64,000 nucleotides of DNA from Escherichia coli (GCF_030013205.1 NZ_CP122648.1), one strand, 5' to 3'. Numbered from the stretch's first letter, positions 1 to 20,498 are shown. The notes: a model not told the origin generated them from the sequence alone. Numbers and translations are program-made.

Positions 1-63
1 CACCGGTCTTGAAAACCGGCGACCCGAAAGGGTTCCAGAGTTCGAATCTCTGCGCTTCCGCCA
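1..63 (+). tRNA. serT: tRNA-Ser (UGA anticodon) 3' portion; gene starts upstream of the window
   Basis: Sequence matches the anticodon arm, variable arm, T-arm and acceptor 3' end (…CGCTTCCGCCA) of E. coli tRNA-Ser; yccA lies downstream as in K-12. Confidence 0.8.
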
Positions 64-68
64 AATAA
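4..68. repeat. 65-bp direct repeat, left copy (prophage att core overlapping tRNA 3' end)
   Basis: Identical to 20434-20498; flanking sequence diverges on both sides. Confidence 0.85.
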
Positions 69-72
69 TCAA

Positions 73-105
73 GGGGTTACCAAATGGTAACCCCTTTGCT
101 TTTTG
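73..105 (+). terminator. Rho-independent terminator hairpin after tRNA-Ser
   Basis: aaggggttacc-aaat-ggtaacccctt stem followed by T-run. Confidence 0.6.
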
Positions 106-110
106 GGCTC

Positions 111-141
111 TTGGTATAAACTTGGTATACCAATTGGTATA
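111..141. repeat. Three direct TTGGTATA repeats next to the att core (candidate integrase arm-type sites)
   Basis: ttggtata at 111-118, 122-129, 134-141; the same octamer recurs at about 20323 near the int end. Confidence 0.4.
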
Positions 142-511
142 TTTTCTGCCAAAAAATTCCTAAAATCCCCTCCAGCACAAACAATCACTTGCTCATTCAT
201 ACTTTATCAAGAAAATATCCTTGCAAGTTATGTTGTTTCTTTCTGCGTCCCGACAGGGTGTCATGGTTCCCCACTTCTCTCGGGATGGACACTTAACGGA
301 CGAGAAATTTTCAGGTGTCATTCAGACGCGCTTCGGCCCCGGATTGGCGAAGCGCGCTTTTTTTCTCAGATTATTTCGTTTTGCCTGAGTGTTGAATAAC
401 GCCACTACAGTTATATAAGCTGGAAATCATTCAATACTCGCACTATCGAAAGTTCACCAGCCAACCGCAGCACGTACTGCATACGTCGTGTCTGCGGTTT
501 TTCTTTTTCAC

Positions 512-16740: not shown

Positions 16741-16752
16741 GATACCGAATAT

Positions 16753-18987
16753 ATGCAGGAAAACTGCTGGGATGAGGAATCCGCTTCCTTTATTCCGGTC
16801 GAACCAGAATCCGATCCGATGAACGTCAATTTTGACAAGCTGTCCCCTGAAGTACAGAACGCGGTCCTGGTTAAGTTCGACACATGTGAAAACATCACCG
16901 TTGATATGGTTATTAGCGCACAGGAATTGTTGCAGGAAGACATGGCAACATTCGACGGACATATCGTTGAAGCGTTGATGAAAATGCCAGAAGTTAACGC
17001 CATGTATCCGGAGCTTAAGTTGCACGCCATTGGGTGGGTTAAGCATAAATGTATTCCTGGTGCTAAATGGCCCGAAATTCAGGCAGAGATGCGCATCTGG
17101 AAAAAACGTCGCGAAGGTGAACGCAAGGAAACCGGAAAATACACGTCTGTTGTTGATCTCGCCCGCGCCAGAGCCAATCAACAGTACACTGACAATTCAA
17201 CAGGAAAAATCAGCCCGGTCATTGCTGCCACTCATCGCGAATACAAGCAGACATGGAAAACACTGGATGACGAACTGGCCTACGCTCTCTGGCCTGGTGA
17301 TGTGGATGCCGGAAACATTGACGGCAGCATCCATCGCTGGGCAAAAAATGAAGTTATCGACAACGACCGCGAAGACTGGAAGCGTATCTCGGCATCAATG
17401 CGCAAACAGCCTGATGCCCTTCGCTACGACCGCCAGACTATTTTTGGCCTTGTCCGTGAACGTCCGATCGACATTCACAAAGACCCTGTGGCACTGAACA
17501 AATACATTACTGAATACCTGACTACAAAGGGCGTGTTTGAAGATGAAGGAAGAAATCAGAGCGCAACTGATACTCTCTCGTCGCCAGTACCAGAAACTGA
17601 TGCAGTGGAAACGGCAATTCCGGACAACGAAAAAACCGAATGCAAAGTGGAAGTCGAACCATCTGTAGAGCGTGAGGGGCCGTTCTACTTCCTCTTCACC
17701 GACAAGGATGGCGAAAAATATGGTCGCGCAAACAAACTTTCTGGTCTGAATAAGGCGCTGACTGCAGGGGCTACTGAAATCACGAAAGAAGAATATTTTG
17801 CCCGTAAAAACGGTACATACTCAGGTTCACAACAAAATACTGGTGCATCTGACACGACCGCACAACCAGAGCCGGTAAAAGTTACCGCTGACGAAGTAAA
17901 CAAAATTATGCAGGCAGCCAATATCAGCCAGCCTGACGCCGATAAGTTGCTTGCTGTATCACGTGGTGAATTTGTTGCAGGGATTAGCGACCCGAATGAT
18001 CCGAAATGGGTGAAGGGGATTGAAACCCGCGATTCAGTGAATCAGAACCAGCAAGAAACGGAACAGAACGACCAGAAAGCGGAACAAAACAGCCCAAATG
18101 CGTTACAAAACGAGCCAGAAACGAAACAACCTGAGCCAGTAGCGCAACAGGAAGCGGAAAAAGTCTGCACCGCCTGCGGTCAGACCGGCGGCGGCAACTG
18201 CCCTGATTGTGGTGCGGTGATGGGCGACGCAACATACCAAGAAACATTCGATGACAAGAACCAGGTTGAAGTTCAGGAAGACGATTCGGAGAAAATGGAA
18301 GGCGCTGAACATCCACACAAAGAGAATGCTGGCAGCGCTCAGGATCACGCCAGCGATAGTGAAACTGGCGAGACGGCAGATCCCTTAATTACGGTGAACG
18401 GTCATCACGTTATCACATCCACCAGCAGGACGTGTGACCATCTAATGATCGACCTTGAAACCATGGGAAAAAATCCTGATGCCCCGATTATCTCAATAGG
18501 TGCAATATTTTTCGATCCGCAAACCGGAGATATGGGACCGGAATTTAGTAAGACTATCGATCTGGAAACTGCTGGCGGAGTCATTGATCGGGACACCATT
18601 AAATGGTGGCTTAAGCAATCACGCGAAGCGCAATCTGCCATTATGACCGATGAAATCCCGTTAGATGATGCACTGTTACAATTGCGGGAATTTATCGACG
18701 AAAACTCCGGTGAATTTTTTGTTCAGGTCTGGGGAAATGGAGCCAACTTCGACAACACGATTTTGCGCCGTTCATACGAACGGCAGGGGATCCCCTGCCC
18801 GTGGCGTTACTACAACGATCGCGATGTACGCACAATCGTTGAGCTGGGGAAAGCCATAGACTTCGATGCCAGAACGGCTATTCCATTCGAAGGTGAGCGC
18901 CATAATGCACTTGATGACGCCCGTTACCAGGCAAAATACGTTTCAGCAATCTGGCAAAAACTGATCCCGAATCCGGTTGATTTTTAA
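16753..18987 (+). CDS. Phage exonuclease, C-terminal DEDDh 3'-5' exonuclease domain (YdfE-like, full length)
   Basis: 744 aa; C-terminal motifs DLETMG / WGNGANFD / HNALDDA; central acidic Gln/Glu-rich linker with CTACG…CPDCG. Confidence 0.7.
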   Translation: MQENCWDEESASFIPVEPESDPMNVNFDKLSPEVQNAVLVKFDTCENITVDMVISAQELLQEDMATFDGHIVEALMKMPEVNAMYPELKLHAIGWVKHKCIPGAKWPEIQAEMRIWKKRREGERKETGKYTSVVDLARARANQQYTDNSTGKISPVIAATHREYKQTWKTLDDELAYALWPGDVDAGNIDGSIHRWAKNEVIDNDREDWKRISASMRKQPDALRYDRQTIFGLVRERPIDIHKDPVALNKYITEYLTTKGVFEDEGRNQSATDTLSSPVPETDAVETAIPDNEKTECKVEVEPSVEREGPFYFLFTDKDGEKYGRANKLSGLNKALTAGATEITKEEYFARKNGTYSGSQQNTGASDTTAQPEPVKVTADEVNKIMQAANISQPDADKLLAVSRGEFVAGISDPNDPKWVKGIETRDSVNQNQQETEQNDQKAEQNSPNALQNEPETKQPEPVAQQEAEKVCTACGQTGGGNCPDCGAVMGDATYQETFDDKNQVEVQEDDSEKMEGAEHPHKENAGSAQDHASDSETGETADPLITVNGHHVITSTSRTCDHLMIDLETMGKNPDAPIISIGAIFFDPQTGDMGPEFSKTIDLETAGGVIDRDTIKWWLKQSREAQSAIMTDEIPLDDALLQLREFIDENSGEFFVQVWGNGANFDNTILRRSYERQGIPCPWRYYNDRDVRTIVELGKAIDFDARTAIPFEGERHNALDDARYQAKYVSAIWQKLIPNPVDF

Positions 18988-19053
18988 TGTTCAACCCTGA
19001 TCGCCGTCCCCGAATTATATTGGCGGCGGTCATGCTGTAAGGCACGTGACCAC

Positions 19054-19305
19054 ATGTACGAATTAACTCTATCGCCAGCAGAGATTCAAGAGATCACGAA
19101 ATACGAGCGATACACAAAACAGCAACACCAGTTAAGGCTGCACGGTATCCCATTTGTAATCGGTCCTAAAAACGAACCAATAGTTCTTCGCAGGGATATT
19201 CCACACGGACTGACTACGATGCCAAAAGCACCTGAACTGGTTTCCGCTGAACCCGATTTTGAGGCGCTGAACAATGGGAAGACCAAGAAAAAACAAAAAA
19301 GATAA
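19054..19305 (+). CDS. Putative excisionase
   Basis: 83-aa ORF immediately upstream of and overlapping int; basic C-terminus. Confidence 0.45.
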   Translation: MYELTLSPAEIQEITKYERYTKQQHQLRLHGIPFVIGPKNEPIVLRRDIPHGLTTMPKAPELVSAEPDFEALNNGKTKKKQKR

Positions 19306-20293
19306 TGCACTACCACCGCGTGTTAGATCGAATGGTTACAGTTACGTATGGAAACCCGAAGGAAGCACAAGAACTATAGGGCTCGGAAGAGTGCGGGAAA
19401 CCAGCGTAGCTAAAGTCTGGCAAAATTATGAGCTGGAAAAAGCAAAACTCCACAACATAATGACAGTAGCTAAATTATGGCACATGTTTATGGACTCCCC
19501 TGCATTTACAGAACTGGCCCCCCGAACCCAAAAAGATTATCGGCAACATCAAAGGGCATTGTTGGCAGTATTCGGAAAAGTGCTTGCTGATAATGTAAAA
19601 ATTGAACAGGTAAGAATTTTCATGGATAAGCGAGGACTTGAGAGCAAGACCCAAGCAAACCATGAACTGGCAAGTCTGAGCCGTGTATACGGATGGGGAT
19701 ATGAGCGTGGGTATGTGAAAAATAATCCATGCAAAGGAGTCAGAAAATTCACACTTAAAGCCCGTACTGTTTACATCACCGATGAACAGTATGCTGCAAT
19801 ATATGCGGAAGCAATTCCACAGTTACGTATTGCAATGGAGATATCCTATCTTTGTGCGGCAAGGCTCGGTGATGTACTCGAGCTGAAATGGCAGGATATT
19901 ATGGAGAAAGGGATTTACATTGAGCAAAACAAGACCGGCACTAAACAAATCAAGGAATGGTCTCCGCGATTACGTACGGCGATCCAGTTAGCCCGAAATG
20001 TATCTTCCGGCACATGCGAGTATGTGATCAACACAACCAAAGGCGGGAAGGTAATAGCCAAGACGCTGAACAACTGGTGGAATCAGGCTAAACGTGCAGC
20101 CGAGCAAAAAGCCGGCGTTCCGTTTGGGTGCAACTTCCATGACATAAAAGCCAAAGGGATTTCACATTACGAAGGCAGCAGTCGCGACAAACAAATTTTC
20201 AGTGGACACAAAACAGAAAATCAGGTGTTGATTTACGATCGTAAAACCAAAATAACACCAACACTGGATTTGCCGCTTGTGGTCAGTAAGTAG
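19274..20293 (+). CDS. int: Tyrosine integrase (lambda Int family)
   Basis: 339 aa; N-terminal arm-binding region like lambda Int; conserved C-terminal Tyr region; 3' end 140 bp from the right att repeat. Confidence 0.9.
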   Translation: MGRPRKNKKDNALPPRVRSNGYSYVWKPEGSTRTIGLGRVRETSVAKVWQNYELEKAKLHNIMTVAKLWHMFMDSPAFTELAPRTQKDYRQHQRALLAVFGKVLADNVKIEQVRIFMDKRGLESKTQANHELASLSRVYGWGYERGYVKNNPCKGVRKFTLKARTVYITDEQYAAIYAEAIPQLRIAMEISYLCAARLGDVLELKWQDIMEKGIYIEQNKTGTKQIKEWSPRLRTAIQLARNVSSGTCEYVINTTKGGKVIAKTLNNWWNQAKRAAEQKAGVPFGCNFHDIKAKGISHYEGSSRDKQIFSGHKTENQVLIYDRKTKITPTLDLPLVVSK

Positions 20294-20433
20294 GCAATAC
20301 AGAAAATTTTCTGGCAAAAAGACTTGGTATATTAACTCTGAATAACTCCCTAATATATTGATTTTTCTTGGTGTCAAGTCTGATTAACTTTTCGGATATT
20401 TTCCGTATTATACTGATTTTTCTTTATTTTTCT

Positions 20434-20498
20434 TCGGTCTTGAAAACCGGCGACCCGAAAGGGTTCCAGAGTTCGAATCTCTGCGCTTCCGCCAAATA
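20434..20498. repeat. 65-bp direct repeat, right copy (partial tRNA-Ser 3' end; att core)
   Basis: Identical to 4-68; preceded by non-tRNA sequence, so a partial copy. Confidence 0.85.

Follow-up and report, generated by a model that had tools for sequence, protein, structure and literature searches.

A largely decayed lambdoid prophage in serT of a pig Escherichia coli strain and a predicted map of its attachment site

The serT–yccA locus

The 64,000-nucleotide stretch of Escherichia coli DNA analysed here (hereafter the window) opens inside the tRNA gene serT and carries a 20.4-kb element between serT and yccA. The element is flanked by an exact 65-bp direct repeat (window 4–68 and 20435–20499), which spans the second base of the anticodon stem through CCA (window 4–63) plus 5 nt, AATAA. 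The main features of the locus are listed below.

1–63, + strand: last 63 nt of serT, tRNA-Ser(UGA); the gene starts 24 nt ahead of the window, has an Rfam tRNA match and is identical in sequence to K-12 serT
4–68, + strand: attL copy of the 65-bp identity block, within the functional tRNA; DNA rightward of the crossover is phage-derived
71–106, + strand: phage-supplied serT terminator, a hairpin with an 11-bp stem (71–96) plus T-run; terminator-like score on both strands
142–146, no strand: outer attP limit; the window, phage Evi, L021 and O157:H7 cease to be homologous ~5 nt past the third octamer
147–19053, no strand: defective lambdoid prophage body (RefSeq annotation; PHROG matches; patchy ~90% nucleotide identity to lambdoid phages)
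19054–19305, + strand: candidate excisionase, overlapping the int start by 32 nt (Pfam DUF4224; PHROG 1266 excisionase, E 6.5e-23)
19274–20293, + strand: tyrosine integrase of the lambda Int type, 339 aa; three residues differ from Evi Int, including a private D298H
20435–20499, + strand: attR copy of the 65-bp block, a 3' remnant of the original serT, displaced and without function
20503–20538, + strand: native serT terminator, hairpin (20503–20529) plus T-run, identical to K-12 except for 1 nt in the loop
20701–21360, + strand: yccA, the first chromosomal gene past the element

ARAGORN finds zero complete tRNAs in the 64-kb window, because the window start falls within serT. In the E. coli ETEC4069 source genome (NZ_CP122679.1), the full 88-nt tRNA-Ser spans window −24 to 63 (L001 3976–4063), so the left repeat copy is the intact serT and the right copy a 3' fragment. 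In K-12, serT is directly followed by the second hairpin, i.e. the native terminator, and yccA. This empty site equals the left flank, one repeat copy and the right flank, so that the edges of the variable region coincide exactly with the repeat. The uninterrupted serT–yccA junction is present in 4664 of 5426 complete E. coli genomes, whereas 749 have an attL-type and 744 an attR-type junction (~745 with both phage junctions); an element using the serT att/int module is found in about 14% of complete E. coli genomes. These comparisons bear out an earlier note on this DNA, which had described a perfect 65-bp repeat over the tRNA-Ser 3' end, int next to its partial copy (the int stop lies 141 bp ahead of the right repeat), no prophage at this site in K-12 and a strain-variable element. 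The end coordinate given there, 20498, is one base short (20499). Beyond that note, the analysis finds heavy decay of the prophage, agreement of site and module with the ~50-kb serT prophage of O157:H7, an inverted octamer copy together with IHF-consensus sites, and a position of int beside the partial copy that is unusual for its clade.

The body of the element contains truncated genes for tail-fibre assembly, tail fibre, J, tail assembly, O and P, and an exonuclease gene with an internal stop. Other genes are those for a holin, a DNA methyltransferase, Q, RusA, DUF968, ParDE, ydfC and dicB. Seven CDS of the element are annotated in RefSeq as pseudogenes or partial, and the annotation lacks genes for heads, terminase and repressor. 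The element is a 20-kb, largely decayed lambdoid prophage in serT of a pig E. coli strain. Insertions of this kind are ordinary and already documented, and the result for the serT prophage does not overturn current understanding.

Origin of the serT 3' end

A complete counterpart of the attachment module is found in Escherichia phage Evi (LR597642), whose Int is 99.1% identical to that of the window. Evi has a complete 40-kb phage genome, only 41% of which is similar in nucleotide sequence to the window element. Its attP is virtually identical to that of the window: the core agrees at 65/65 positions and the P arm at 134/141, and agreement in the P' arm extends through the third octamer. In the tRNA orientation, the Evi attP reads as the int stop, one TTGGTATA octamer, an IHF-like site, about 70 bp, the 65-bp serT copy, the phage terminator with an IHF-like site and three tandem TTGGTATA octamers.

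Both repeats are followed by a strong hairpin and a T-run, with folding energies of −23.9 kcal/mol (71–96) and −21.6 kcal/mol (20503–20529), and the phage-borne terminator differs from that of the Evi attP by one base. The tRNA-Ser gene is intact in the lysogen according to both annotation and Rfam, and alignment of the Evi attP and K-12 attB with attL and attR shows directly how attP and attB gave rise to the two junctions, the tRNA segment of attP restoring the gene. Since the Evi attP consists of a 65-bp tRNA fragment, its own terminator and octamers, the replacement serT 3' end is phage-derived; the working 3' part of serT comes from the phage. Two further proposals of the earlier note, namely, different but similar terminator hairpins after the two repeats and a phage-supplied tRNA 3' end, are thereby upheld.

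Two other accounts of the element were considered. The size of ~20 kb and the presence of int and xis with neither head nor terminase genes would suit a naturally small phage satellite or PICI-like island. However, such an island would be compact, equipped with replication and capsid-redirection genes of its own and free of structural remnants, whereas this element holds half of the O gene, a truncated P, the interrupted exonuclease gene and pieces of the genes for tail-fibre assembly, tail fibre, J and tail assembly. It is also collinear with full lambdoid phages at about 90% nucleotide identity, and its att and int module also serves elements of full size, namely Evi (40 kb) and the O157:H7 prophage (about 50 kb). 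We regard the satellite origin as very improbable. Alternatively, the repeat might have arisen when the 3' end of the tRNA was duplicated locally, with no part played by site-specific recombination, the prophage-like genes having arrived by another route. Nothing but the bare presence of the repeat favours such a duplication, and it is refuted by the Evi attP, in which the same 65 bp is flanked by exactly the inner-side sequences of both repeat copies, and by the precise empty sites in 4664 genomes; we give it practically no credence.

Octamer repeats and the integrase

Copies of TTGGTATA lie at 111–118, 122–129, 134–141 and 20324–20331, all on the + strand, and an inverted, overlapping copy is found at 126–133. 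The earlier note had reported three of them at 111–141 and one near the right end, which is now placed precisely. The 64-kb window contains seven matches to the octamer versus 1.16 expected, a number reached in none of 100 shuffles. The candidate arm features are as follows.

111–141, + strand: P' arm with three tandem TTGGTATA octamers, spaced 11 and 12 bp; inverted overlapping copy at 126–133
20324–20331, + strand: P arm with a single TTGGTATA, oriented like the P' copies and ~110 bp ahead of the anticodon loop
20368–20375, + strand: degenerate octamer TTGGTGTC, possibly a weak second P-arm site
67–79, + strand: AATCAAGGGGTTA, a match to the IHF consensus and candidate H' site that shares bases with the 5' half of the phage terminator
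20351–20363, − strand: IHF-consensus match AATCAATATATTA in the P arm, kept in Evi and with one mismatch in L021 and L036

All octamers, which form arm repeats in both arms and are unlike the core in sequence, are present in the Evi attP. The P-arm octamer is invariant in L021, L036 and L050, where its flanks vary, and a single octamer occupies the equivalent P-arm position in ST64B, KpF5 and mEp390. By contrast, TTGGTGTC is uncertain as a second P-arm site because its sequence varies among relatives. The H'-like IHF match is also found in Evi and L080, whereas the native terminator reads GATAAGGGGTTA at that place. Only six sequences in the 64 kb match the IHF consensus, and two of these consensus matches fall in the attP arms.

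The window Int and lambda Int (PDB 1z1b) form one phmmer alignment over residues 1–339 (E 1.3e-17, identity 24%). It starts from residue 1 of both proteins and includes the arm-binding domain of lambda Int, residues 1–64 (MGRxR..LPP..R.NGY.Y....GLGR.R), although none of the Pfam arm-domain models matches Int at E <= 0.001. The match to PF00589 scores 35 bits, against a cut-off of 27.1. Aligned on lambda Int, residues R197, K220, H289, H312 and Y321 are in place and Lys292 stands at the position of lambda Arg311. This lysine at the box II arginine position is found throughout the clade, viable phages included, always in the motif FHD[IL]KAK. Natural proteins with lysine here are documented, though rare, and the Cre R292K mutant is active (PMC2943603). 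D298H is private to the window Int at a position invariant in 79/79 relatives. Given this substitution and the clade-wide lysine, the activity of the window Int is uncertain. By its homology to lambda Int, the protein is predicted to be heterobivalent, with an N-terminal domain that binds arm sites. The DUF4224 protein is a putative excisionase.

Covariation of the arm motif with the Int N-terminal domain

Ints of ST64B, KpF5, 689R5, mEp390 and the metagenomic relatives L057–L088 belong to the same clade as the window Int (42–76% identity). In their attP regions, three or four 8-mers follow one another in tandem next to the 3' end of the tRNA; the three complete attPs have a further single 8-mer some 110 bp past the anticodon loop. 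They also share the block of identity from the anticodon arm to the tRNA 3' end, whereas the arm motifs are mostly different and the target is often another tRNA gene (serU, or yet another in mEp390). The motif is TTTTCTCA in ST64B and KpF5, ATTCCAAG in 689R5, TATTCTAA in L057, L058 and L088, ATGGCGAA in mEp390, and TATACCAA in L060, L061, L080 and L081. The N-terminal domain of the window Int is nearest to the TATACCAA group (64–66% identity versus 50–53%), whereas its core-binding and catalytic domains are nearest to the TATTCTAA group (83% and 70% versus 70–75% and 56–59%). Across only five motif groups, the 8-mer thus appears to covary with the N-terminal domain of Int and not with the remaining protein or the target tRNA. 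In L057 and L080, the octamers remain at the tRNA end even though ~1 kb of cargo parts them from int.

These comparisons, together with the lambda Int homology from residue 1 and the conserved 3+1 layout, support the arm-type reading proposed in the earlier note, and the octamers can be predicted with confidence to be arm-type Int sites. In relatives, int lies on the side of the triple repeat and converges on the tRNA, so that its position beside the partial copy is unusual for the clade; the attP cassette is inverted relative to int in the window/Evi sublineage compared with all relatives and lambda. On balance, we lean towards a view of this clade in which arm specificity (N-terminal domain and octamer), core target (serT or serU, one base apart in the overlap) and orientation of the attP cassette were reshuffled as independent modules. 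The lineage of the window, Evi and O157:H7 serT prophages would then be a natural 'flipped attP' variant, with int on the single-site arm 20–50 kb from the intact tRNA and the prophage opposite in chromosomal orientation to its same-site relatives, in a clade that works with lysine in place of the near-invariant box II arginine. Such a clade provides a compact natural series for the change of arm and core specificity in lambda-type integrases and could also yield orthogonal integration tools.

Crossover position and proposed integration

tRNA integration sites are reportedly classed by sublocation, with one class at the anticodon loop. The window element resembles this class in that its block extends from the anticodon stem past CCA, with symmetric stem halves around a 7-nt loop, and a crossover there is suggested by sequence comparison. 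The corresponding features are the following.

3–19, + strand: anticodon stem-loop CCGGT-CTTGAAA-ACCGG, proposed core-type Int site, with the 7-nt loop (8–14) as the proposed overlap and crossover
20435–20450: proposed attR equivalent of the anticodon stem-loop

In each of the four attPs of the clade that were compared, the 5' strand of the anticodon stem marks the start of the identity block. serT and serU, with anticodon arms that differ at 1 nt, are targeted by near-identical Ints. L058 (serT) and L088 (serU) have core-binding domains that are 100% identical, and the two tRNAs share the anticodon arm only. A rearrangement in O103/O111 has its breakpoint within the anticodon loop (junction CGGTCT/ACCAAACGG, partner site CCGGACTACCAAACGG); this scar represents a single lineage event and could be due to illegitimate recombination at CT microhomology. 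Strand exchange most likely takes place in the 7-nt anticodon loop.

We propose that a phage attP of about 285 bp recombined, via Int, with the serT segment that extends from the anticodon arm to the gene's 3' end. The stem halves would serve as core-type Int sites. Because strand exchange is placed in the anticodon loop, serT of the lysogen would be chimeric, with a bacterial 5' third, phage 3' two-thirds and the phage terminator, and the original 3' part and native terminator would be left as a dead fragment beside yccA. Like lambda Int, the heterobivalent integrase would hold the octamers of both arms with its N-terminal domain and bind and cut the core with its C-terminal domains, IHF acting at the arm sites and the DUF4224 protein serving as excisionase. 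For this explanation as a whole, i.e. a defective lambdoid prophage that entered serT through Int, with the octamers as its arm sites, we estimate a probability of about 0.85.

Two elements of this scheme have competing interpretations, both of which we consider unlikely. The crossover point cannot be read from the serT locus alone, since attP and attB do not differ within the 65 bp, and exchange might occur elsewhere in the block, at the T-loop or the 3' end. Other integrase subfamilies use these sublocations (Williams 2002, as summarized in a preprint). However, in every attP of the clade the 5' strand of the anticodon stem is precisely where the identity block begins, the identical core-binding domains of L058 and L088 act on tRNAs with only this arm in common, and the O103/O111 breakpoint maps into the loop. 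As for the octamers, they might bind another protein (an excisionase, a host factor or a regulator of cargo genes) or form a promoter or regulatory element at the prophage end. The searchable literature yielded no report of Int binding to TTGGTATA, the palindromes TTGGTATACCAA and TATACCAATTGGTATA, which overlap, would fit a regulator that binds as a dimer, and the cargo/effector region starts straight after the third copy. Against such a role, the motif follows the Int N-terminal domain independently of the remaining Int and the target tRNA, the octamers adjoin the tRNA end regardless of what lies beyond, and the 3+1 layout flanking the core at about 100–130 bp is the plan of lambda, with three P' sites plus P sites, although Xis might still contribute to octamer binding.

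Comparison with lambda and the O157:H7 serT prophage

The likeness of the proposed arm-type system to lambda includes full-length Int homology with the N-terminal arm-binding domain, xis upstream of and overlapping int, int transcribed towards attP, and three tandem arm sites about one helical turn apart in one arm with at least one in the other. IHF sites lie in both arms, those of the window being candidates. The differences are equally clear. The lambda core lies between gal and bio, whereas the proposed core of the window is the anticodon arm of a tRNA gene, and 60 nt of tRNA plus a terminator separate the window core from the triple arm sites. As arm motif, the window has TTGGTATA and lambda C/AAGTCACTAT, and int occupies the single-site arm instead of the P' (triple-site) arm. 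The Ints are only 24% identical, with lambda Arg311 replaced by lysine.

The serT prophage of O157:H7, presumably also Sp4, occupies the same site, beside yccA and tusE. O157:H7 genomes match positions 1–242 of the attL query at 98–99% identity, through the third octamer, and the comparison strain, NE 1092-2, has the same order as the window, in which serT is followed by cargo and tail genes, and exo, DUF4224 and int stand at the yccA end. A prophage named CP-933M was placed between yccK and serT in a report on EDL933 (PMC5552260). For the Int clade common to the O157:H7 serT prophage, Evi, ST64B and Klebsiella phages, the window provides a testable attP map with a proposed anticodon-arm core, four predicted TTGGTATA arm sites and two IHF-like sites. 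For the cryptic prophage of porcine ETEC/O139 strains, the analysis gives exact boundaries and decay status, which mainly tidies the record. The O157:H7 prophage is ~50 kb in size, with structural genes as well as IS elements and remnants of effectors (espV, tccP2), whereas the 20.4-kb element of the window has lost the heads, most of the tails, and the lysis and immunity genes.

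Integration of the prophage into serT

The element lies between two copies of an exact 65-nt direct repeat, the only long direct repeat returned, which covers the 3' end of a tRNA-Ser gene as described in the earlier note. The window opens within a tRNA gene, and no complete tRNA is found in it by ARAGORN. The genome of porcine E. coli ETEC4069 (NZ_CP122679.1) contains an 88-nt tRNA-Ser downstream of hyaA, at positions corresponding to -24..63 of the window. Hence intact serT has its 3' two-thirds in the left copy, and the right copy is left as an orphan fragment. From the second base of the anticodon stem, the repeat runs to 5 nt past CCA. 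As had been noticed from the sequence, the integrase gene adjoins the partial copy, and each copy is followed by a G+C hairpin and a T-run, the two hairpins being different yet similar. The features of the element ends are as follows.

4-68: left repeat copy (attL)
67-79: start of the phage-borne terminator; IHF consensus match
111-118, 122-129, 134-141: octamers TTGGTATA (P' arm)
126-133, other strand: fourth left-end copy of TTGGTATA, resulting in overlapping palindromes
19274-20293: int, encoding a 339-aa tyrosine recombinase; stops 141 bp short of the right repeat
20324-20331: octamer TTGGTATA (P arm)
20351-20363: IHF consensus match
20435-20499: right repeat copy (attR)
20498-20510: equivalent place in the native terminator

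K-12 had been said to have no prophage at this site. Indeed, serT of MG1655 is followed directly by the hairpin of the window's right repeat and then by yccA, and the K-12 sequence corresponds to the left flank of the window, one repeat copy and the right flank. The phage partner is represented by Evi (LR597642), a 40-kb lambdoid phage genome with an Int 99.1% identical to that of the window. Directly downstream of int, Evi carries the sequence found left of the window's right repeat (134/141 nt identical), followed by the same 65 bp and then by the hairpin and three octamers found right of the left repeat. This arrangement is exactly attP. Recombination of Evi attP with K-12 attB gives attL and attR of the window, a derivation that is demonstrated by these sequences and not just deduced. 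The order within Evi attP matches the inner sides of both repeat copies, as expected if the phage supplies a replacement tRNA 3' end; the functional serT of the lysogen therefore has a phage-derived 3' part and terminator. Thus, the interpretation of serT integration in the earlier note is supported.

Predicted arm-type sites of the integrase clade

The octamers reported at both ends are present (three in tandem on the left, one on the right), and TTGGTATA has seven matches in the window versus 1.16 expected. The copies at 16299 and 48459 are within chance expectation. An inverted 'P2-like' octamer, TATACTGA, in the P arm (20409-20416) was rejected, since it is not conserved in the related loci L021 or L036. 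The comparison took in attP or attL regions from clade members with Int identity of 42-76%. In all of them, three or four tandem 8-mers, spaced by ~11-13 bp, are located just past the tRNA fragment on its 3' side, in most cases behind a terminator hairpin. The three complete attPs (phages ST64B, KpF5 and mEp390) have one copy in the same orientation on the other side, ~110 bp past the anticodon loop. The window agrees with them: measured from the loop, the triple sites are at 100-130 bp and the single site is at ~110 bp. In two relatives, L057 and L080, int and the repeats are ~1 kb apart, with cargo in between, and the repeats remain beside the tRNA end. Homology between the window, Evi, L021 and O157:H7 ends ~5 nt past the third octamer, which marks the attP boundary. 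Positions 143-157 and 20307-20321 resemble each other over 15 nt (ttttctgNcaaaaa), a similarity that the Evi P' arm lacks. An A+T-rich palindrome, CAGAAAATTTTCTG, is found directly after the int stop (20300-20313), and its Evi version is a 16-bp perfect palindrome.

Arm motifs (int-sense strand) and targets of clade members. TATACCAA is the reverse complement of TTGGTATA.
Motif; members; target
TTTTCTCA; ST64B, KpF5; serU-like (tRNA-Ser CGA fragment)
ATTCCAAG; 689R5; serU
TATTCTAA; L057, L058, L059; serT
TATTCTAA; L088; serU
ATGGCGAA; mEp390; another tRNA
TATACCAA; L080, L081; serT
TATACCAA; L060, L061; serU

Identity of the window Int to members of two motif groups.
Domain; TATACCAA group; TATTCTAA group
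N-domain (residues 1-58); 64-66%; 50-53%
Core-binding; 70-75%; 83%
Catalytic; 56-59%; 70%

The domain-wise identities show that the predicted arm motif tracks the Int N-domain. L058, integrated at serT, and L088, integrated at serU, share the motif, with 90% identity in the N-domain and 100% in the core-binding domain.

The IHF consensus WATCAANNNNTTR has only six matches in 64 kb, two of which are located in the arms. Collectively, these comparisons give strong support to the octamers being the predicted arm-type Int sites. At its start, the phage-borne terminator matches the IHF consensus perfectly (AATCAAGGGGTTA). The native terminator has GATAAGGGGTTA at the equivalent place, and L080 likewise carries TATCAAGGGGTTA. 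The phage-borne hairpin, similar to the native one but different, may double as an IHF site.

Position of the crossover

Since both partners have the same 65 bp, the crossover cannot be read at the serT locus itself. An exchange in the anticodon loop is suggested by three indirect lines of evidence. In 4/4 clade attPs examined, the identity block opens with the 5' strand of the anticodon stem. Furthermore, Ints with identical core-binding domains target either serT or serU, which have only the anticodon arm in common, CCGGTCT[T/C]GAAAACCGG; a one-base change in the overlap would explain which of the two is used. Finally, 13 O103/O111 genomes have a fusion in which the int-P arm runs up to CGGTCT and continues into a lambdoid prophage's truncated nanS-p/DUF1737 gene (L089 7090-7120, from E. 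coli O103 RM8385, and L050; partner site at L090 296-320). The intact partner, CCGGACTACCAAACGG, matches the serT anticodon arm at 12/17 positions, which, together with the CGGTCT junction, places the exchange within the first loop bases. This fusion looks like a scar of Int-mediated recombination at a secondary site. The overall picture fits the anticodon-loop sublocation class, as that class is summarised in a preprint.

Orientation of the attP cassette

In lambda, int is separated from the core by the triple P' sites. The clade relatives all have the triple repeat and the tRNA 3' end facing int, corresponding to the 'opposite convergent' shape of Panis et al. (PMC2951348); L080 and L081, with the octamer and the tRNA of the window, are no exception. 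A cassette of ~285 bp is flipped in the window, in Evi, in O157:H7 and at all loci with Ints at least 96% identical: int points the same way as the tRNA fragment and adjoins the single-site arm. This puts int next to the orphan fragment and 20-50 kb away from the intact tRNA, with the prophage in the opposite chromosomal orientation. The flip seems to have happened once, in one sublineage. By eye, the int-proximal flanks of the window and L081 showed no homology.

Integrase conservation and activity

The window Int and lambda Int give one alignment, which starts at residue 1, reaches about residue 318 (E 1.3e-17) and takes in the N-terminal arm-binding region. Throughout the clade, FHD[IL]KAK is found, with a lysine where lambda has the catalytic Arg311, the box II arginine (FHDIKAK in the window, Int residues 288-294, 20135-20155). 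The lysine is present in 79/79 viral-contig relatives (L003-L007, L009-L088) and in Evi, ST64B, KpF5, 689R5 and mEp390. Conservation of the box II arginine across tyrosine recombinases is 99.1%; lysine occurs naturally in a few of them, and Cre R292K is active (PMC2943603). We take the lysine as compatible with function because Evi, ST64B and mEp390 were deposited as phage genomes. Residue 298 (20165-20167) is a histidine private to the window (GISHYEG versus GISDYEG), the aspartate being present in 79/79 relatives and Evi. D298H may be a sign of relaxed constraint in a defective prophage. Judging from the identical att cores and arms closely matching Evi attP, excision of the element is plausible.

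Gene content and decay

By RefSeq annotation and PHROG scans, the element is a decayed lambdoid prophage. Genes for tail-fibre assembly, tail fibre, J and tail assembly are partial, only the C-terminal half of the O-like initiator remains, the P-like loader is N-terminally truncated and the exonuclease has an internal stop. The same sources reveal no head, portal, terminase or repressor genes in the element. The structural and replication gene remnants of the element led us to reject a satellite or PICI. Nucleotide similarity to full phages is patchy, at ~90%. Holin, DNA methyltransferase, Q, RusA, DUF968, ParDE, ydfC and dicB are apparently intact. The ParD/ParE toxin-antitoxin pair occupies 10141-10703 within the remnant, and the methyltransferase (5072-6157) and dicB/ydfC (14692-16229) are kept although a repressor gene is not annotated. 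At the Rfam gathering threshold, neither DicF nor any other RNA is found in the element beyond the tRNA and IS009, a candidate sRNA family (223 bits, 555-753, minus strand) within the tail-fibre-assembly remnant. Beyond the element, the window is core chromosome from yccA to ldtD; ycbX (about 44230-45340; L091 24022-25132) is annotated as frameshifted in ETEC4069.

Distribution and documented insertions at serT

Junctions were counted in 5426 complete E. coli genomes using 265-nt queries. Because the phage and native terminators are alike, attL and empty-site queries align over 75% in the wrong genome class, and only counts at ≥80% coverage, used here, are meaningful. The junction is empty in 4664 genomes, of attL type in 749 and of attR type in 744, with about a dozen fitting none of the three, confirming that the element is strain-variable. 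Essentially the same 20-kb element is found in 22 genomes, all porcine. The attL junction is also present in O157:H7 genomes, including NE 1092-2, where a ~50-kb prophage has the layout of the window: serT, an espV fragment, a tccP2 pseudogene and tail genes, then exo, DUF4224 and int adjoining yccA. CP-933M of EDL933 lies between yccK(tusE) and serT (PMC5552260), and an Stx2d phage at serT has been reported (PMC13188871); a literature search combining serT, prophage and yccA gave no match. The NE 1092-2 prophage, CP-933M and the Stx2d phage mean that the site and the module were already known. The serT prophage is an ordinary case: the phenomenon is well understood and the site is documented. 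The additions are modest: a predicted attP map for the Int clade, evidence that arm and core specificity swap as modules, and the inverted attP orientation.

Plasmids contain eight places with a serT-like fragment at ~90% identity (records NZ_CP098186.1, 27 kb, and NZ_CP041417.1, 306 kb), which may represent phage-plasmids with an attP or tRNA genes of plasmids. In the host of L081 (2633-3000), serT is divergent from yccA, whereas in E. coli both are co-directional; therefore, the chromosomal context of the target varies between species.
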